Positions 2-63,965 of a stretch of 64,000 nt of DNA are shown here, in pieces (positions within the stretch are counted from its first letter, which is position 1; each line of letters starts with the position of its first letter). Made by a program: the position numbers and the translations under genes. The notes beneath the pieces were generated by a model that was not told the origin of the DNA, did no database searches, and worked only from the letters and a program-made list of their open reading frames with translations. This stretch comes from an uncultured bacterium (GTDB lineage: Bacteria > Methylomirabilota > Methylomirabilia > Methylomirabilales > CSP1-5): the NCBI GenBank assembly GCA_964348275.1, contig CAYGBT010000010.1, forward strand, positions 21,424 to 85,423. Direction: 5' to 3'.

Positions 2-238
2 CTTTTCGGCGCCTGGCAACAGATCTTTTGGAGGGAAGCGAGCGGCCGTCCCCTTCATGCAGCCCCTCGTGTCATGACGGGATCGGGCCTCGTTATGGCC
101 GGGCTCATTTTGGTCGGCACGATATTGCTCAATCCCCTGGTCGATTTTTTGACCGCCGTGGAGGCTCAGCTGAGGCAGCCGGGGGCCTATGTGACGGCCG
201 TGTTTCGGGAGGTGCCGCGTTTGACCAGCCTGCCCTGA
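2..238 (+). CDS. C-terminal fragment of a polytopic membrane protein, probably Mrp/Mnh antiporter subunit D (5' end outside window)
   Basis: My own frame-2 translation is open from the window edge to TGA 236-238 (...GLVMAGLILVGTILLNPLVDFLTAVEAQL...). It is hydrophobic and lies directly upstream of mrpE-F-G. Not in the ORF track. Confidence 0.4.
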   Translation, partial: LFGAWQQIFWREASGRPLHAAPRVMTGSGLVMAGLILVGTILLNPLVDFLTAVEAQLRQPGAYVTAVFREVPRLTSLP

Positions 239-1645: not shown

Positions 1646-3268
1646 ATGCGCATCACACGGTTTATCCGCCTCATCCGATCCTTAGCTGTTGTATCCGCAG
1701 GTGTGGTTGTTCTTGGCGCGGTGATAGCTCCGGGGGCGCTGGCAGCGGAACAACCGAAGACGGGTGGCACCCTGACCTTTGCCGTCGCCGCCGAGCCGCC
1801 GTCGTATGATCTGCACCGGGAGACGAGTTTCGCGGCGATGCATCCGCTGGCCCCCCACTACAGCCTTTTGATCAAGTTCAATCAGTGGAAGTACCCCGAG
1901 GTTGAAGGGGATGTTGCGGAAAGTTGGGATACCTCCAAGGATGGGCTAACGTATACCTTTAAGATCCGGAAGGGGATTAAGTTTCACGATGGGAGCGTTC
2001 TCACGGCGAAGGACGTCAAGGCAACGTACGACAAGATCATCTTTCCGCCCGAGGGGGTACGCAGCGTTCGGAAGGCGTCCTACGCCATGGTCAAATCCGT
2101 GGAGGCGCCCGACGATCACACCGTCGTCTTCCGCCTCAAGTGGCCGGCGGCCTCGCTCCTCGCCAACCTGGCGTCCCCGTGGAATCCGATCTACAAGGCG
2201 GACATCCTGGCCAAAGACCCCCACTGGTACGAAAAGAACGTCGTGGGGACCGGCCCCTTCAAATTCGTTGAACACGTGAAGGGGTCCCACTGGGTCGGCA
2301 AGAAGAACGAGGACTACTTCATGAAGGGGCGGCCCTATCTGGATGGCTACCGGGCGATCTTCATCCGGGATACCTCAGCCCGCGTGGCGACCGTGCGGGG
2401 TGGACGAGCACTGATCGAGTTCCGGGGTTTCTCACCCGCCGCCCGCGACGACCTCGTTCGTTCCCTCGGGCCCAAGATCAAGGTCCAGGAAAGCCCCTGG
2501 CTCTGCGTCCTGACGGTGGCGCTGAATACGCAGCAAAAGCCGTTTGATGACGTGCGGGTCCGCCGGGCGTTGAGCTTGGCCGTCGACCGCTGGGGCGGGT
2601 CCAAGCACCTCTCGCAGATCTCCATCATCAAATCGGTCGGTGGGGTCATCCGTCCGGGTTACGAGGCCTATCAGGCGACCGAGGCCGAGCTCAGCAAGCT
2701 GCCCGGCTTTAGCAAGGACATCGAGGCGTCGCGCAAGGAGGCCCGGCGGCTGCTCAAGGAGGCGGGCTACGGCGGGGGATTTGGGTTTACCTTTAAGAAT
2801 CGCGATGTGAAGGAGCCCTATGAGGTCGTGGGGGTCTGGCTCATTGATCAGTGGCGCCAGATCGGGGTGGCCGCGAGCCACGGCGTGCAGGAGACTGCCG
2901 CGTTTTCCAAGGACCGCCGCGCCGGAAACTTCCAAGGCACCATGGACTGGGCGTGCGATTTCATGGACGAGCCGGATCTGCAGCTCTTCAAATATGTCTC
3001 AACGAGTAAGAGCCCTATCAACTATGCCAAGTACGAAAATTCAAAGCTCGATCAGCTTTATGAACAGCAGAGCAAAGCCACGGACCCGGCAGCCCGGCGA
3101 AAGCTCGTTCGGGAATTTGAGCGGATCGTTCTCAACGAGGCGTACACCTTCCCCACCCTCTGGTGGCAGAAGATCAACCCCCACTGGGCCAAGGTGAAAG
3201 GGTGGAAGCAGCTCCCCAGCCACTACTTGAATCAGGACCTGCGAGACGTCTGGCTGGAGGAGGGTTAG
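1646..3268 (+). CDS. ABC transporter substrate-binding protein, family 5 (peptide/nickel type)
   Basis: The ORF track gives 1628-3268. I prefer ATG 1646, which is preceded by AAGGAGG at 1633-1639. Signal peptide ending ...GALAAEQ; length and motifs (...TLTFAVAAEPPSYD..., ...VGTGPFKFVEH...) fit the DppA/OppA family. Confidence 0.85.
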   Translation: MRITRFIRLIRSLAVVSAGVVVLGAVIAPGALAAEQPKTGGTLTFAVAAEPPSYDLHRETSFAAMHPLAPHYSLLIKFNQWKYPEVEGDVAESWDTSKDGLTYTFKIRKGIKFHDGSVLTAKDVKATYDKIIFPPEGVRSVRKASYAMVKSVEAPDDHTVVFRLKWPAASLLANLASPWNPIYKADILAKDPHWYEKNVVGTGPFKFVEHVKGSHWVGKKNEDYFMKGRPYLDGYRAIFIRDTSARVATVRGGRALIEFRGFSPAARDDLVRSLGPKIKVQESPWLCVLTVALNTQQKPFDDVRVRRALSLAVDRWGGSKHLSQISIIKSVGGVIRPGYEAYQATEAELSKLPGFSKDIEASRKEARRLLKEAGYGGGFGFTFKNRDVKEPYEVVGVWLIDQWRQIGVAASHGVQETAAFSKDRRAGNFQGTMDWACDFMDEPDLQLFKYVSTSKSPINYAKYENSKLDQLYEQQSKATDPAARRKLVREFERIVLNEAYTFPTLWWQKINPHWAKVKGWKQLPSHYLNQDLRDVWLEEG

Positions 3269-5236: not shown

Positions 5237-5252
5237 GGCACTTCCAGACTGC

Positions 5253-5332
5253 GGGGGAAAAAAGGGGGGAAAAAGGGGATAAGAGGGGGAAAAAGGGGAT
5301 AAGTTCAATTATCTGTAAGTTCAATTATCTGT
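5253..5332. repeat. Purine-rich G-run array (GGGGGAAAAAGGGGATAAG x2 plus partial units) followed by a perfect tandem 16-mer AAGTTCAATTATCTGT x2
   Basis: Read directly: the 19-nt unit is at 5265-5283 and 5285-5303; the 16-mer is at 5301-5316 and 5317-5332. An inverted copy of the 19-mer lies at 6058-6075. Confidence 0.8.
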
Positions 5333-5366
5333 TGACGTAACCAAGGCCTTCTAATACCGTCCTCAT

Positions 5367-6053
5367 ATGCCTCGTACGGCCCGTACCGCTCCTGGTGGCG
5401 TGATCTTCCATGTGCTCAACCGTGCCAATGCGCGGATTCGGATCTTTGACGACGCCTCCGATTATCAGGCGTTCGAATGGCTATTGGCCGAGACGGTGGT
5501 GCGGGTGCCGATGCATCTCCTGGCCTACTGCATCATGCCAAACCACTGGCATTTGGTAGTCAGGCCCGAGCGGGACGGACAGCTCGGGAGATTCATGCAG
5601 CGACTGACCACCACGCATGCGCGCCGATGGCATCGGACCCGGGGAAGCGTCGGGAGCGGACACCTCTATCAGGGTACGTACAAATCATTCCCCGTTCAGG
5701 ATGACGAGCACTTTCTCACGGTGTGCCGGTACGTGGAGCAGAACGCCCTGCGGGCGGGCTTGGTCGAGCGGGCGGAGGACTGGCGATGGTCGAGCCTCTG
5801 GGCGCGGCTCCAAGGAGAGGCCGTTCAACAGAAGCCGATGCTGTCGATATGGCCAGTGCCCCTCCCGGACGATTGGCTTGCATTGCTGAACGAGTCCCTA
5901 TCATCGAAGGGGCTCGAGACCTTGAGGCTGTCGGTTCGGCGAGGCCGGCCGTACGGCAACGAGGCTTGGCAACAACGGATGGCTAAACGTCTGGGCTTGG
6001 AGTCTGCCTTCCGCCCCCGGGGTCGTCCCGGTAAAGAAGGGCGCGGTCAATAA
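5367..6053 (+). CDS. IS200/IS605-family Y1 (HUH) transposase, REP-associated tyrosine transposase (RAYT)-like
   Basis: HUH motif ...MPNHWHLVVRP...; catalytic-Tyr region ...CRYVEQNALRAGLVERAEDWRWSS..., as in RAYT/TnpA-REP proteins; single-gene unit flanked by inverted repeat arrays. Confidence 0.8.
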   Translation: MPRTARTAPGGVIFHVLNRANARIRIFDDASDYQAFEWLLAETVVRVPMHLLAYCIMPNHWHLVVRPERDGQLGRFMQRLTTTHARRWHRTRGSVGSGHLYQGTYKSFPVQDDEHFLTVCRYVEQNALRAGLVERAEDWRWSSLWARLQGEAVQQKPMLSIWPVPLPDDWLALLNESLSSKGLETLRLSVRRGRPYGNEAWQQRMAKRLGLESAFRPRGRPGKEGRGQ

Positions 6054-6056
6054 TGT

Positions 6057-6110
6057 ACTTATCCCCTTTTCCCCCTTCCCCTTTTCCCCCTTTTCCCCTT
6101 CGTACCTAGG
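6057..6110. repeat. Pyrimidine-rich array, inverted counterpart of the 5253-5303 G-run array
   Basis: CTTATCCCCTTTTCCCCC (6058-6075) is the reverse complement of GGGGGAAAAGGGGATAAG. It is followed by degenerate TTCCCC/TTTTCCCCC units. Confidence 0.8.
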
Positions 6111-6144
6111 CCCTCGGATGCCAGTGCAGATGAGACTTCATCAG

Positions 6145-7332
6145 CTACTCGTTGCCCCGACGATTTGGGGCCCCCTTCTTGCTCTTTCCCGCTTCCACCA
6201 AACGGCTGCCCAGAAGGTTCAGCTTGAATCTCCTCACCGTGTCAGGCGTCACAACCTCTCCCCTCGGGCTCCGGAAGTAAAGCGCGTCGAACGGACACTG
6301 CACGATGCACGCACCACACTGCACGCATTGCTCCGCCTTCGGTAGAGTCGCCAACTGCTGACGGTGGTCCACCTCGAAGACGTCCGTGGGGCACACCTGT
6401 TCACAGAAGCCGGCTCCCTTGCATCGCTCCGTGTCTAGACCGATCCGAAACCGGCGGTCTTCGTGCAAGCCACTCTTGTAAACCGGAGTGCTCCCCATCA
6501 GGTCCAGACTCAAAACCAGGACTACGACCAGGGAGCTCAGGCCCCAACGGAAAATCAGCGCCCAGGAAAAATAGCCGGCCAGGACTTCATAGCCAACGAG
6601 ACCAAGCAGGAAGAACAACCATAGGAGCAGCGGAATGCGTCGCTGACCGAAGTCGAAAAAAACGACGCCGACGCTCTTCCCTGTGCTACGGAGGCGTCCT
6701 TCGTAGAGGGGAAAGCTCAGGAAGATGAGAAGGGACAACCCCCAGACCAGACCCACAAGCGGGAGCACTCCCTCCCTCCAAAGTGGAAAGACGACGAGCG
6801 CACCAACAAGGGAAATTGGAAACGCCCAGGCGACGGCCATCTCGAGCCGCTGCGGCCACGGGAAACTCACCGTGCGCATTTCTACGGTTTTCTCGAGACC
6901 GCCACTCACGAAGGCGGGAATCGCAGCCGCGTAGACCGGTCCCCAGATGACCCTCCACCCGGCCTTCTTATGGATGACCTTGCCGTCAATGCCCGTTGCG
7001 GCGAGTTGCGGCAGGATCACGTGCCGGTGGTCCACGAGGTCTTCGATACCACTCGTCTTCAGGATCGAGACGACGTCGTGATTAGTCAATAGCCCCCCCG
7101 TCGCTGCACACCACACGTTGTGTCCGCGGCTGTTGGCAACGAGTAAGTATGTATCGATCCCTTCGAGGGCGCGCTTGACGCGTTCCACCGTGAGTCGGAA
7201 GTTGCAGGTGAGTAGGACCGGCGAATTACGGCCAGGGTTTCCGATCTTGACGAGACCCGTCTTACATGGAAACGGGAGAACACGGAGCAGGGTTTGGAGG
7301 ACATTCACCCAAACGAAACTGAGATGCCTCAC
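6145..7332 (-). CDS. Fused HgcA-like corrinoid/transmembrane protein with a C-terminal HgcB-like 2x[4Fe-4S] ferredoxin domain
   Basis: N-terminal domain with ...SRGHNVWCAATGG... (compare the HgcA cap-helix motif N(V/I)WCA(A/G)GK); about 4 hydrophobic helices; C-terminal CKGAGFCEQVCP and CVQCGACIVQCP. The GTG start overlaps the TGA of the upstream methyltransferase gene. Confidence 0.6.
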   Translation of the reverse strand: MRHLSFVWVNVLQTLLRVLPFPCKTGLVKIGNPGRNSPVLLTCNFRLTVERVKRALEGIDTYLLVANSRGHNVWCAATGGLLTNHDVVSILKTSGIEDLVDHRHVILPQLAATGIDGKVIHKKAGWRVIWGPVYAAAIPAFVSGGLEKTVEMRTVSFPWPQRLEMAVAWAFPISLVGALVVFPLWREGVLPLVGLVWGLSLLIFLSFPLYEGRLRSTGKSVGVVFFDFGQRRIPLLLWLFFLLGLVGYEVLAGYFSWALIFRWGLSSLVVVLVLSLDLMGSTPVYKSGLHEDRRFRIGLDTERCKGAGFCEQVCPTDVFEVDHRQQLATLPKAEQCVQCGACIVQCPFDALYFRSPRGEVVTPDTVRRFKLNLLGSRLVEAGKSKKGAPNRRGNE

Positions 7333-8027
7333 AGTGCTACTCCAGCGGGCTCTTGCGCCACGATTTCGATAAAGCTGCGCAGTGTGCTCCAGTTGACCGA
7401 TAGGATCGTTAGACCTGCGTTGGTCAGTCTATCCGGCAACTCCGCGATGGGATGCGTCGTTTGTTGAGTGATGATGTACGTAAGGGCCGCCAGAGGCACC
7501 TTGACCAACGACTGAACCACCCGGGTGGCAACGCTTCGAGGCTTGACCTCATCTGCGACGAGCAGAAGGCCTCCGGGCCTCAGGATTCGCCCCACCTGCT
7601 TAAGGGCGTACGCGAGCTCATCCTCGCTTAACTCAGAGAAGCAGAGGCCGCTCATCACTGCGTCGTAGCTCTGCGGCTCCTCGCCGTCCAGCTCGGCGAC
7701 GCCCATTTCTACGAGGTCGACGCGTTCCGCAAGGCCCGCCTCCCTCGCCCGCTGGGCAGCGATCTCGAGCATCTGGGAGTTGACATCTATCCCTTTCACC
7801 TTCGCGCCACGTCGGGCGGCTCGGAGCGTCAACGCGCCGGTGCCGCAGCCGAGATCCAGCACTCGCTGCCCGTGCTCAACGTGGCCCGCAAGGCGATCGT
7901 ACGCTCTCTCAAGGCGCCCGAGCGTGAGGAGGCGGATGCCGAGATCGTATCGGCCTGGGCTGGATTCTAGGATTCGCATCAGGACGTACGTGCTCATCTC
8001 GGGATCCGTTCTGCTGGTACCAACCAA
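7329..8027 (-). CDS. Class I SAM-dependent methyltransferase
   Basis: Motif I ...RVLDLGCGTGALT...; post-I ...KGIDVNSQML...; ...ILRPGGLLLVAD...; 232 aa. The true start may be the internal MSTYVLM. Confidence 0.85.
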   Translation of the reverse strand: MVGTSRTDPEMSTYVLMRILESSPGRYDLGIRLLTLGRLERAYDRLAGHVEHGQRVLDLGCGTGALTLRAARRGAKVKGIDVNSQMLEIAAQRAREAGLAERVDLVEMGVAELDGEEPQSYDAVMSGLCFSELSEDELAYALKQVGRILRPGGLLLVADEVKPRSVATRVVQSLVKVPLAALTYIITQQTTHPIAELPDRLTNAGLTILSVNWSTLRSFIEIVAQEPAGVAL

Positions 8028-9018
8028 CGCGCCTAGGTATCGCTAAATGCTCATTGACACTAAGGTAAATCAGCAAGCCGGGTGCCATCGGAAGGAGGGT
8101 TCTCCTACCAAGATCTAATTCCCGAATTCTTAAGCAAAAGAGCGGCCAGAGAGGGACGAAAAGAGGCAAATCCTCCGGGCCAACTGAGACACGGGTGCCT
8201 CAGCGCGGTCAGGGATACTACTCCCGAGAAACTGGGGAGCTAGGCACAAGCCCCCTGCATTCACCTGGGACAATCGTGTCCCCAGGTCACGAGGTTGTCC
8301 CAGGGGAGAGGGCCTAACTTTGCCGTCAGCAGCGCACGCGATCTTGGGACACCCGGGGGTGAATTGAGGCGGATAGGTAACCTGAGGACTGATAGACTTC
8401 TACTCCGATTCCATCCCCGATTCCCCTCTGCAGGGATCGATTATTGCCTAACCGTGGCCGGCTTCAGGGGCCTGGGGCAATCCCCCTGGTTGCGGGCAGG
8501 CCTTCAAACGCCCTGGCAGATTACTACCACAAATCAACTACAAATCAACAGTGGGAGGTGTGCTGATTTGCGCATTGCTGGACGCAGCGGTGACCTGCTG
8601 ATTGGTAATTCAGATGCAGCCTTCCGAACCCAAGAAAAACGGCTTGTTACAGGACGCTGCTACCAGAGTGCTACCAGCATGACCTCTACCCGGTGCTCAC
8701 CCAACCCAAAGGCTGACTAACATCTCTAGGAGTTTCCCAGCACCGAAACCCTTGCCCTTGACACCCCTGCCACATGAGGGGACATTTGAGGTCATCTCAG
8801 GTTTTGCATGGATGGAGCCGTGGTGAAGAAAAACTGTAACACTAGGAAACGGCAGCCCTCGCGGCGTCATGCTGCAGGGGCTTTTCTGTTGGGCGCAGTG
8901 ATCTGGCTCTTGCTGCTCAACCCTGCCGTGGCCAACCTTGACGCTTTGCCCCTTTTCCGATAGCATACCACCGCGTTTCAGCGTTTTCTTTTCAGAATAC
9001 TCATCGGTGGGTCGTGTC

Positions 9019-52913: not shown

Positions 52914-52989
52914 GGGGCTGTGGCGCAGTTGGGAGCGCGCTTGACTGGCAGTCAAGAGGTCGGGGGTTCGAATCCCCTCAGCTCCACCA
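52914..52989 (+). tRNA. tRNA-Ala (anticodon GGC)
   Basis: Folded by hand: acceptor GGGGCTG/CAGCTCC with G3:U70; D arm GCGC-AGTTGGGA-GCGC; anticodon arm CTTGA-CTGGCAG-TCAAG; T arm with GGTTCGAATCC; encoded CCA. Confidence 0.9.
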
Positions 52990-61962: not shown

Positions 61963-62967
61963 TTACTGCCTCACCATCAGGGGTGTGAACCCTTCCTTCT
62001 TCAGAGCCTCAACGGCCTTCTGGGCCTCCGCTCGGTTCTCATACTCGCCAATCCGCACTTGGTGCACTGGGGTGGGGGCAGTCTCGGAGTCGATCTTGGA
62101 CGTGTAATTCTTCTTTCGTAGACTGCGGGCCAAATCGATGGCCTCGTTCAGATGAAACGATGACCCGACCTCCAGACGGAATTTCCCTCCCTCGATTTCG
62201 ACTAGGTTGGATGGAAACCCATCAACGTTCAGACTCCGCGCCGTCTTTTCTGCTTCCTCACGGCTGCTAAATTCCCCGGCATAGACTCGATGGCGAGTAA
62301 TGGGGACCGTGGTCATGCGGATGACCGGATTATATCCGAGTCCTTCTAGCTGCTTCTTGAGGGTGAGGGCATTCCGCTCGACGCCCAGACTGGCGACTTG
62401 GAGGGTATATCGCTTCTCCCTCTTGATCTCGGGCTCGGTCACCTTCGCCATCGGTTTTGGGACCGGTTTCTCCGCGACAGCCGGGGCTCGTGGTGGCTTG
62501 GGGCTTGCCTGCGGAACCTCGGGGGGCCCGACTACTACTGGAGGAGCCTCTTCCTTAGGACGACCTGTCACCGTGGGAGGTGCGGGGGTTGGAGGCCACT
62601 CTCCCGTTAGGTTTTTGCAGTGTACGTAGCCTAATCTCCCCCCGGACGCGACCTCTTTGATCTTGCACCAGAGCACCTGTCCTGCTTCGACAACAACTCT
62701 GATCTCCACGAGGTCCCCCCGCGCGAGCGTGAACACCATGTTGCTGGTTGTGTCCATCCGAGGGAACACGGGCACCGAGTCGCTCTCTACAACCACCTGG
62801 TTAAGCGGGGCTTTCTCCTCAGCCGCCTTACCGGGCACAGCTAGCCCCAATAGCACCACAGCGGCAATCGCGGCAAAGGCGATGACTCCCGCCCTCTTCA
62901 ACCGCCGATTCTCTCGCTCCACCCGCTCCAGCCGTTGTATTAGGGTTTCCATCGTTGGCTGATTCAT
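61963..62967 (-). CDS. Membrane-anchored SH3b-like + Pro-rich linker + double SPOR-domain peptidoglycan-binding protein
   Basis: N-terminal coiled coil and TM (...VIAFAAIAAVVLLGLAV...); SH3-like ...ARGDLVEIRVVVEAGQVLWCKIK...; two SPOR-like units (...YTLQVASLGVERNALTLKKQLEGLGYNP..., ...HQVRIGEYENRAEAQKAVEALKKEGFTP...). Confidence 0.7.
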   Translation of the reverse strand: MNQPTMETLIQRLERVERENRRLKRAGVIAFAAIAAVVLLGLAVPGKAAEEKAPLNQVVVESDSVPVFPRMDTTSNMVFTLARGDLVEIRVVVEAGQVLWCKIKEVASGGRLGYVHCKNLTGEWPPTPAPPTVTGRPKEEAPPVVVGPPEVPQASPKPPRAPAVAEKPVPKPMAKVTEPEIKREKRYTLQVASLGVERNALTLKKQLEGLGYNPVIRMTTVPITRHRVYAGEFSSREEAEKTARSLNVDGFPSNLVEIEGGKFRLEVGSSFHLNEAIDLARSLRKKNYTSKIDSETAPTPVHQVRIGEYENRAEAQKAVEALKKEGFTPLMVRQ

Positions 62968-63965
62968 CGCTTACTTCCCTTTCCCGCTCCACCTGCATTC
63001 GTGAGGAACTGCGCGTATCTCATCTTGTAAAGATCCTCTGCCTCCTCCCAATATTTGATCAGGACGCCCCAGACAAAAGCCAATCGCTCACCCAGGCCGA
63101 ATCGCAGGAGGTGCTCCATCTCGGAGGCCAATGCGAGGAGAACCGTGATCGTCGTACCCATGGCCTGAGATTTCCGTTTGATCAATTGTGCCTCTCGCTC
63201 CTCGCCGGGCTTACGCAATAACGCTGATCCTCGATGGACGAGGCCGGGGAAACTCAGATGAGCTTCTTGTGAAAGCGTCCTGTAGAACCACGCTTCAAGA
63301 TATTCGAGAAAGGCTGGATCTTTTGCTTGGCCCTTCATCTGGCTGGGAATCGGCCAATACTTGATCTTTGTCAAATCTGCGGTCTCTTGCTCGGATAATC
63401 CCCAATCCACCCGAGTCATTTCCAAAAACTTACCGTAAGTTTCTAGCCAATCCGCCCATGCTGGGGTCTCTCCATACTTGGACTTGTATCTGTCATACGT
63501 TTCCTTACTTTCGCGCCAACCACTCTTGTAAAACCATTGCGTCCTTACAGATAGGTCCTCGGAAAGGAATATCACCGAAAAAAGCTGGTCCAGCAGGGAT
63601 CGTGTGAGAGGGGGAATTGATAAGGCAAACTCCAACGGCGGCGCACTTTCTTTCGGAAAACCTCCCGCAAGGAATAGGATGCTCTGGTACGTGTTGACCG
63701 CGACCTTGACCATGGTCAGGAAGAGCACTTGTGCTCCAGGAATGTCTACAAGTTCCTTGGGCCACTCGCGATCAATGAGGTTCTTTAGGGCTTCCAGCCC
63801 TTCGTCCAACGGGTCCCTTAAGATTTTGAAATCCAACACCCTATCAGGCGGAACATCGTCTTTGTTCACCGTAATGCGCTCCCTTACCCATCTCCCTACC
63901 GCCCCTGTTTCCCGTCCGACTCCCGCCTCTTTTCTCACTTTGCCTTGCTTGCCATCTCTCGGCAA
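62964..63965 (-). CDS. Hypothetical helical protein
   Basis: 333 aa; 4-nt overlap with the SPOR gene; Trp/Tyr-rich (...WFYKSGWRESKETYDRYKSKYGETPAWADWLETYGKF...); no domain recognised. Confidence 0.55.
   Translation of the reverse strand: MPRDGKQGKVRKEAGVGRETGAVGRWVRERITVNKDDVPPDRVLDFKILRDPLDEGLEALKNLIDREWPKELVDIPGAQVLFLTMVKVAVNTYQSILFLAGGFPKESAPPLEFALSIPPLTRSLLDQLFSVIFLSEDLSVRTQWFYKSGWRESKETYDRYKSKYGETPAWADWLETYGKFLEMTRVDWGLSEQETADLTKIKYWPIPSQMKGQAKDPAFLEYLEAWFYRTLSQEAHLSFPGLVHRGSALLRKPGEEREAQLIKRKSQAMGTTITVLLALASEMEHLLRFGLGERLAFVWGVLIKYWEEAEDLYKMRYAQFLTNAGGAGKGSKR

Follow-up and report, generated by a model that had tools for sequence, protein, structure and literature searches.

The closest described relatives of the locus considered here are RAYT-like genes flanked by terminal inverted repeats (TIRs), which were named 'TIRtrons', and their products 'TIRYTs', by Di Nocera, De Gregorio and Rocco (2013, PMC3733652). 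By their account, the TIRs lie at a constant distance from the gene, many carry the motif GGGGWSAS while others do not, and in some genomes TIR copies are single, dimeric or grouped. The study of Quentin et al. (2018, PMC6006769) equates TIRYTs with subclass 2.1 of TnpA-Y1 and with group 1 of Bertels, and gives for this subclass a median length of 238 aa, the HuH motif NH[VYF]H, the tyrosine motif Y[IV](E/H)LNP, an 'SS' tail motif and no repetitive extragenic palindromic (REP) sequences; for IS200/IS605 insertion sequences it lists a Y...Q motif, asymmetric subterminal hairpins, often tnpB, and a high copy number. According to Bertels et al. (2017, PMC5581495), group 1 is the largest RAYT group, low in copy number and slightly like insertion sequences (ISs), with moderately repeated flanking 16-mers. 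Additionally, guanine tetraplexes have been proposed as extra RAYT recognition elements from circular dichroism (CD) spectra of REP oligonucleotides (Charnavets et al. 2015, PMC4690160). In the literature that we searched, no biochemical study of any TIRYT was found, and the name appears in just two publications. Here, we analyse a Y1/HUH transposase gene and its G-rich flanks in a 64-kb stretch of DNA (hereafter the window) from an uncultured Methylomirabilota bacterium (GenBank assembly GCA_964348275.1, contig CAYGBT010000010.1, positions 21,424 to 85,423), following up an earlier note that was made from the sequence alone.

We consider it probable that the element is a TIRtron, i.e. a TIRYT-group Y1/HUH gene bracketed by TIRs with the core (A)AAAAGGGGATAAGTnCAATTAT, and that its product recognises a TIR of ~22 nt, and cuts and rejoins one DNA strand.

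Layout of the element

Five runs of four to six guanines, separated by A5-6 or ATAAGA, occupy positions 5253-5303, between the stop codon of an oppC-like permease gene (5236) and the intact transposase open reading frame (ORF); the G-run array overall spans 5253-5315 on the plus strand, and its inverted counterpart lies at 6050-6100. The 19-mer GGGGGAAAAAGGGGATAAG is found exactly at 5265 and 5285 and, inverted and with two mismatches, at 6058-6076, where it starts 5 bases past the transposase stop codon; with up to three mismatches allowed, there are four matches against the 0.05 expected from shuffles. Similarly, the pattern GGGGAAAAN{0,2}GGGG has seven matches in the window, all seven within the two arrays (0.06 expected). 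The longest inverted pair (5283-5307 with 6054-6078) has arms of 25 nt that are 88% complementary, and the 16-mer TAAGTTCAATTATCTG is perfectly repeated in tandem at 5300-5315 and 5316-5331 (equivalent to 5301-5332 in the earlier note). Thus, what the earlier note had stated of the sequence itself, namely the G-run arrays, the inverted 19-mer and the tandem 16-mer, is correct throughout. Beyond the element's own ends, the window holds no further TIR copies. The coordinates of all features are collected in Table 1.

Table 1. Positions in the window of the putative TIRtron, its parts and the island that contains it
Feature	Position	Strand	Remarks
Putative TIRtron unit, whole	5253-6100		~0.85 kb; Y1/HUH gene between inverted repeats
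Outer reiterated units of left end, GGGGGAAAAAA / GGGGGGAAAAAGGGGATAAGA	5253-5284	+	Truncated tandem copies of outer TIR part
Left TIR, full unit GGGGGAAAAAGGGGATAAGTTCAATTATCTG	5285-5315	+	Family core AAAAGGGGATAAGT at 5291-5304
16-nt tandem duplicate TAAGTTCAATTATCTG of inner TIR part	5316-5331	+	Lineage-specific
Putative promoter	5332-5360	+	TTGACG (5332-5337), 17-nt spacer, TACCGT (5355-5360)
TIRYT-type Y1/HUH transposase gene	5367-6053	+	228 aa; HUH, Y122, WRWSS, AT-hook-like RPRGRPGK
Right TIR, plus strand ATAATGTACTTATCCCCTTTT	6050-6070	-	Overlaps TAA stop codon
Outer reiterated units of right end	6071-6100	-	C/T-rich on plus strand; colinear with left array
Strain-specific island	5240-8935		3.7 kb; homology break against L222/L224/L225 (blastn); element at left edge
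CdhD-like/4Fe-4S gene	6145-7332	-	Island content, domain search
Class-I methyltransferase gene	7329-8027	-	Island content, domain search
~900 nt, no ORF of known family, no Rfam match	8028-8935		Island content

The transposase

The 5367-6053 product matches the Pfam family Y1_Tnp (PF01797) with 55.8 bits (cut-off 23; E 6.4e-15), and the NCBIfam model REP_Tyr_transpos (NF047646) with 70 bits, which is under its cut-off of 80. In 30 aligned homologues, the following are invariant: H60-W61-H62 (the HUH motif), R121-Y122, N126, W139 and W141 (both in WRWSS) and G219-R220-P221. The tyrosine motif reads RYVEQNA in the window copy against a family consensus of RYVERNP, with N126 invariant and the proline replaced by alanine. 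A phmmer search of the PDB with the single protein gave no match, and a profile was needed: that of the 30 members matches E. coli TnpA-REP (4er8_A; E 3e-5), followed by the ISDra2 transposases, and places H60-W61-H62 on the E. coli HMH and Y122 on the tyrosine of DYIYINP in 4er8_A. The AlphaFold2 model (pLDDT 79.3, pTM 0.78) leads to the same protein: 4er8_A is the top Foldseek match (E 1.2e-6), followed by the ISDra2, IS200 and IS608 transposases. The proposal of the earlier note that the gene encodes a RAYT-like HUH/Y1 enzyme is, therefore, well founded.

The last 100 residues contain no Pfam domain. At the C-terminus, there is an invariant RPRGRPxK of AT-hook form (residues 216-223, window 6019-6041), to which the Pfam AT_hook model matches weakly in 2 of the 30 members; its form suggests that the tail could touch the A/T-rich parts of the repeats through minor-groove contacts with the duplex. 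The family comprises at least 7,930 database proteins of ~225 aa. The best 120 of these homologues are 60-86% identical to the window protein and derive from metagenome-assembled genomes (MAGs) labelled Methylomirabilales, Binatia, Planctomycetota and Deltaproteobacteria; a search of plasmids gave 14 distant matches only, each of <37% identity.

Terminal inverted repeats in homologues

The three closest homologous loci are in other organisms and other genomic contexts, and have the same flanks: they carry ...AAAAGGGGATAAGTnCAATTATCTGTTGAC... upstream of the gene and TAATGTACTTATCCCCTTTT... right after its stop codon, with only one to three G-runs and one copy of the 16-mer (which is single-copy in loci L001, L006 and L228; L numbers denote individual loci throughout). 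Our flank survey took in 86 further gene-carrying loci. With the core AAAAGGGGATAAGT scored as present at up to two mismatches, homologues of 59% identity or more have it on the left in 34 of 42 flanks, mostly 56-62 nt ahead of the ATG, and on the right in 37 of 43, where it begins ~3-47 nt past the stop codon; the repeat is, in keeping with the earlier note, associated with homologues elsewhere. In the anchored consensus, the conserved segment of ~22 nt is (A)AAAAGGGGATAAGT(C/A)CAATTAT, which ends at the A-tract.

Homologues of 50-58% identity have related but different inverted repeats (AAAAGGTGTCAGGAACC, ATAACGGGGTCAGGGACG and AAATGGGGTCAGCCACC), and an exact GGGGWSAS, as GGGGTCAG or GGGGACAG, is present in 18/37 of their left and 18/39 of their right flanks. 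An inverted word of at least 12 nt is common to both flanks in 60 of 75 loci. Moreover, in L157 (713-1390 plus flanks), both ends have changed together to GGGTCTAAG (variant core AAAAGGGTCTAAGT / ACTTAGACCCTTTT). Since distant homologues have their own repeats and both ends of L157 are altered, the TIR co-varies with the protein lineage, as would be expected of a cognate recognition site.

The sole hairpin of a single repeat (GATAA/TTATC) is no better than those of shuffled sequences, at -1.1 to -1.8 kcal/mol (z -0.3 to -0.5), and the GT[AG]G head of REPs is not present in the flanks of the window element; the view that these are inverted repeats and not REP palindromes is thereby upheld. Two further observations concern the repeats. 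An A/T-rich tract adjoins the G-run in every TIR variant of the family, and L165 (whole locus, 1143 nt) has complete TIR doublets (a TIR, ~50 nt and an inverted TIR) on both sides of the gene in place of single TIRs, an arrangement like that of a REPtron bracketed by REPINs.

Gene-less copies of the repeat

A scan with the 17-mer AAAAGGGGATAAGTNCA in one genome per species gave at least 120 loci; among the matches listed, most have no transposase gene nearby. Head-to-head pairs without a gene number at least 25, in at least 24 loci, nearly all of them in Planctomycetota MAGs; their members are 33-153 nt apart and, among the matches listed, the spacing is within 72 nt for all but the derivative in L111. 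These doublets form long near-perfect hairpins (-32 kcal/mol, z -11.8), and in a single Phycisphaeraceae MAG the motif is present on at least 10 contigs and forms nine doublets or more. In L111, the promoter and first codons of the gene are joined to the right end within 153 nt; this is an internal-deletion derivative, the classical signature of the formation of miniature inverted-repeat transposable elements (MITEs). Additionally, a doublet of ~100 bp in a Nitrospira MAG retains a promoter remnant, and a Methylomirabilales MAG has a solo repeat besides its gene copy.

A different grouping is seen in a Pirellulales MAG (JBBDNX01; L048 at 2939-3135, L125 and L107), where several TIRs of the left-end type stand in direct orientation, each followed by a similar sequence of ~60 nt; these differ from the head-to-head doublets. 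The same 17-mer scan of viral contigs gave 13 isolated matches, about the chance level by a rough estimate and none of them near a transposase gene, and these were set aside. We also dropped end-to-end copying as a rule for the family, because outer extensions that are idiosyncratic to one element are shared by its two ends in doublets (5.9 vs 4.1 of 12 nt), but not generally in gene-carrying copies (4.6 vs 4.3).

If it works like E. coli TnpA-REP and the IS200/IS605 enzymes, the TIRYT protein would bind its cognate TIR and cut one DNA strand by means of an HUH-bound metal and Tyr122, with formation of a 5'-phosphotyrosine link; rejoining of the ends would then mobilise TIR-bounded DNA, chiefly the short gene-less doublets, as hairpins of the REPIN or MITE kind.

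Promoter overlap

The pattern TTG[AC]NN-16..18-TANNNT, ending 5-10 nt before the start codon, is present in 57 of 82 distinct left flanks, as against 4 of 1,640 shuffles. In the window, the -10 hexamer TACCGT ends 6 nt before the ATG and, because of this, the transposase mRNA is probably leaderless; the left TIR abuts the -35 box. A generic promoter and terminator scan did not call this plus-strand promoter (and found no intrinsic terminator), so the evidence for it is its conservation across the family. The overlap of TIR and promoter suggests that the gene is autoregulated.

Other possible signals were noted around the two ends. On the minus strand at 5308-5335, the 16-nt duplication creates an outward sigma-70-like pair, TCAACA-16-GATAAT (9/12 matches), directed towards oppC; the two hexamers are adjacent in single-copy versions, and the one site, against 0.4 expected in shuffles, is not significant by itself. 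The 3' untranslated region of the transposase mRNA (6054-6100, plus strand) would be a C/U-rich, G-poor tract of 45 nt that resembles Rho-utilisation sites, and a transcript that runs outwards from the left end, on the opposite strand, would likewise be C/U-rich and G-poor.

The G-run arrays

Both window arrays fit the pattern (G>=4 N1-7)x4, as the earlier note had pointed out, with G4Hunter maxima of 2.28 and 2.40. With its G-quadruplex option, ViennaRNA predicts a four-layer quadruplex for them, at -21.5 and -27.6 kcal/mol, in contrast to 0.0 (no Watson-Crick fold) without the option; the two arrays can also pair with each other, at -44.7 kcal/mol. Among 155 distinct homologue flanks, the pattern of four runs of at least four guanines is confined to three, i.e. 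both window flanks and one other, whereas 138 have two or fewer such runs (the numbers of flanks with zero to five runs being 30, 69, 39, 12, 3 and 2); even four runs of at least three guanines are found in only seven.

More widespread is the reiteration of the outer repeat part as a tandem 'staircase' of truncated copies, which is often seen (e.g. L214, L203, L182 and L207): direct repeats of 9 nt or more, within 40 nt, are present in 27% of flanks, compared with 3.7% of segments taken at random from these loci and 1% of shuffled sequences. Strain variation is also evident. The copy in L228/L229, whose protein is 94% identical (34 nt differences in the coding sequence), likewise directly follows oppC, with a slightly different abutment point and unrelated downstream DNA; its ends are single units, and it has neither the 16-mer duplication nor the outer reiterated units. 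By contrast, L221 has an identical coding sequence with an extra insert of 29 nt, GGGAAAAAGGGGATAAGTTCAATTATCTG, at the same junction (this left flank also occurs in L227), and a right array that is one T shorter than that of the window. The window allele is also present in L220 (Logan ERR2564004), and the +29-nt allele in L221 (GCA_012974945.1) and L227 (Logan ERR2564002); because each is recovered in two different assemblies (not necessarily from separate read sets), we take the array alleles to be real polymorphisms. A further repeat is seen at 843-900 of L228, where the right end is followed by a direct repeat that spans the junction, CCCTTTTCGTGGG(TATG)CCCTTTTCGTGGG, and takes in the TIR tip together with the DNA that flanks it, which is what a duplication in place would give.

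The arrays consist of tandem copies, in part truncated, of the outer TIR segment, which is an A-tract and GGGG to which ATAAG may be added. Because they are unconserved, minimal in L228/L229 and one step longer in L221/L227, we regard the arrays and the 16-mer duplication as recent local expansions of the element ends, and the G-quadruplex potential as a by-product in the window copy. On this comparison of flanks, the conserved feature is a single TIR core of ~22 nt and not a four-run array, and the suggestion in the earlier note that a G-quadruplex array could be what the enzyme recognises is not supported; nor is the locus as unusual as was then thought, given that RAYT-like genes between TIRs with a GGGG motif have been known since 2013 and that the proposal of guanine tetraplexes as RAYT recognition elements dates from 2015.

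The reiterations could have been made either by slippage or by aberrant cleavage and rejoining. It is rather doubtful, though worth stating, that they are products of the enzyme's own aberrant cutting and rejoining, in which case the fixed junctions would mark its natural cleavage sites. The idea stems from the observations that reiterations recur in the family, vary between strains with identical genes and are expanded colinearly here; speculatively, it would also agree with the junction after ...ATTATCTG and the point of restart at the outer A-tract boundary, both of which are constant. Were it true, the activity of TIRYTs could be read from the arrays, and the ends of such copies, prone to G-quadruplex formation and with phased A-tracts, could secondarily modulate that activity.

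Genomic context

Upstream of the element are genes for an SBP_bac_5 binding protein and two permeases, and the earlier note had supposed that it stands where the ATPase genes of this transporter would be expected. In three relatives, with OppC proteins that are 92%, 86% and 84% identical, neither a transposase gene nor ATPase genes follow oppC: after a spacer (~130 nt in two of them, ~560 nt in L225) come genes for a LapA-like protein, a 177-aa protein, MlaE, MlaF and MlaD. Because relatives without the element are also without ATPase genes at this position, the element, judging from these genomes, did not displace them. Elsewhere, the ORFs at 61963-63965 were considered as DppD/F ATPases and rejected, as one has SPOR domains and the other no Pfam match.

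In blastn comparisons with L222, L224 and L225, homology ends at 5239 and restarts at 8936, so that the element is part of a larger island (Table 1). In Rfam searches of the window, a tRNA (52914-52986) is the only match, and neither the element nor the 900-nt gap has any. The same intergenic spot holds a different insert of ~500 nt in L225, which marks it as a variable hot spot. At the right edge of the island (8945-8960), the native promoter spacer of the LapA-like gene reads GCTTTGCCCCTTTTCCGA, which is conserved in the element-free L222 (1780-1800), L224 and L225, and which includes CCCCTTTT, complementary to AAAAGGGG of the outer TIR; this could be a mimic of the insertion target, or a coincidence.

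Weighing the alternatives

Several points weigh against the TIRtron interpretation. The binding, cleavage and mobility that we attribute to the TIRYT are argued by analogy; no Pfam match to a helix-turn-helix (HTH) or DnaA_C domain was obtained in the C-terminal part of the 30 members, even at E<=1; and the window core GGGGATAA departs from GGGGWSAS at two positions, matching it at 6 of 8. Comparison with element-free relatives does not yield exact termini, given that a 3.7-kb island surrounds the element and that the DNA downstream of the L228 copy differs. There are five runs at each end of the window copy, and this colinear expansion of both ends is not accounted for by simple independent slippage. 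Moreover, since no other TIR copy is present in the window, the gene could be a resident copy that has been retained by the host.

The last point bears on what is, in our judgement, an unlikely explanation, namely, that this is a domesticated and immobile RAYT-like gene whose repeats serve as operator or iteron sites, in autoregulation or a host function, with the arrays as extra binding sites. It would accommodate the single copy without dispersed repeats, the abutment of the left TIR on a conserved -35 box, the AT-hook-like RPRGRPxK (whose invariance suggests binding of duplex DNA beside A-tracts), and the description of group 1 RAYTs as mostly low-copy and housekeeping-like (PMC5581495). 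It would leave unexplained why the same repeat stands past the stop codon, where a promoter has no need of it, and why doublets without a gene, along with a deletion derivative, are scattered over many genomes; furthermore, protein identities of 60-86% across phyla in unrelated contexts point to horizontal movement, and the element is absent from this site in close relatives. Less likely still is that the arrays fold on single-stranded DNA as intramolecular G-quadruplexes and that these are the substrate of the transposase. The predicted folds speak for it, as do the status of the GGGG run as the most conserved TIR element in the family and the tetraplexes proposed for some REPs from CD data (PMC4690160); however, the four-run pattern is rare among homologue flanks, each end of the 94%-identical copy at this site is a single unit, the arms of a doublet have their G-runs on opposite strands and pair as a -32 kcal/mol hairpin, and the window arrays can instead pair mutually.

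An ordinary insertion sequence of the IS200/IS605 type seems to us highly improbable. The Y1_Tnp domain and the match of the fold to the ISDra2 and IS608 transposases would be in keeping with one, but the element has TIRs and not distinct subterminal hairpins, there is no tnpB (the neighbours are oppC and the CdhD-like gene), the motif is that of class-2 RAYTs, Y...N(P/A) and not Y...Q, and the protein has a C-terminal extension of ~100 aa and TnpA-REP as its best structural match. Least credible of all is an artefact, in which the assembly or sequencing of a low-complexity region would have produced the arrays and the 16-mer duplication: the sequences do come from MAGs, and homopolymer lengths are one base apart between assemblies, yet both alleles were each recovered in two different assemblies, albeit with read sets that are possibly shared. 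Overall, we favour a TIRtron. Two tempting readings are thereby corrected, in that G-quadruplexes are not conserved at the ends and ATPase genes were not replaced. Together, the locus and its relatives supply a sharply defined cognate site of ~22 nt, naturally occurring end alleles, both minimal and expanded, and abundant hairpin doublets in Planctomycetota, and a study of binding and cleavage by a TIRYT should, therefore, be straightforward to design.

Comparison with known systems

The tetraplexes of Charnavets et al. and the window arrays have in common G-tracts in the 5' half of the repeat and the notion of non-B DNA that is read by the enzyme; the former, however, involve two G-tracts in palindromic REPs and are bimolecular, whereas the latter present an unconserved, intramolecular pattern of four runs. 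With the IS200/IS605 family (IS608 and ISDra2), the window element shares the catalytic fold and, presumably, the chemistry of single-strand cutting and rejoining, but it lacks tnpB, asymmetric subterminal hairpins and Y...Q, and has TIRs and a longer protein.

The REPtrons, or RAYT-REPIN systems (TnpA-REP 4ER8 and the Pseudomonas REPINs), are closer. Here, the resemblance extends to the HUH/Y1 core, a tyrosine motif close to the class-2 Y...NP type (with alanine for proline in this copy), a DW(P/R)(F/W)S(T/S) segment, the best structural match (4ER8), a gene that is bracketed by inverted cognate repeats, and dispersed gene-less inverted doublets that form long hairpins. The differences are that the single repeat of the window element is not a stable palindrome, that it is without the GT[AG]G head, and that no dispersed copies are present in this 64-kb window.

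The greatest likeness is to the TIRtrons, an architecture that has already been described and a kind of element that is known but little studied. In common with these, the window has a RAYT-like Y1 gene, TIRs at a fixed distance with a GGGG-led motif, a protein of 228 aa (~230 aa) with a C-terminal tail and the 'SS' motif in WRWSS, a low copy number, and TIRs that are single, dimeric or grouped in other genomes. The tyrosine motif, YVE(Q/R)N(P/A), fits or nearly fits Y[IV](E/H)LNP. Departures include the HuH motif, NHWH, where V, Y and F are the middle residues listed for the subclass, and the tail: the class has a C-terminal HTH-like domain, and the tail here is without a DnaA-C or HTH Pfam match and carries the invariant AT-hook-like RPRGRPxK instead. 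The available portions of the TIRYT papers make no mention of tandem truncated reiterations outside the TIR, strain polymorphism or the promoter/leaderless arrangement. The TIRtrons and TIRYTs themselves probably correspond to subclass 2.1 of Quentin et al. and to group 1 of Bertels et al.

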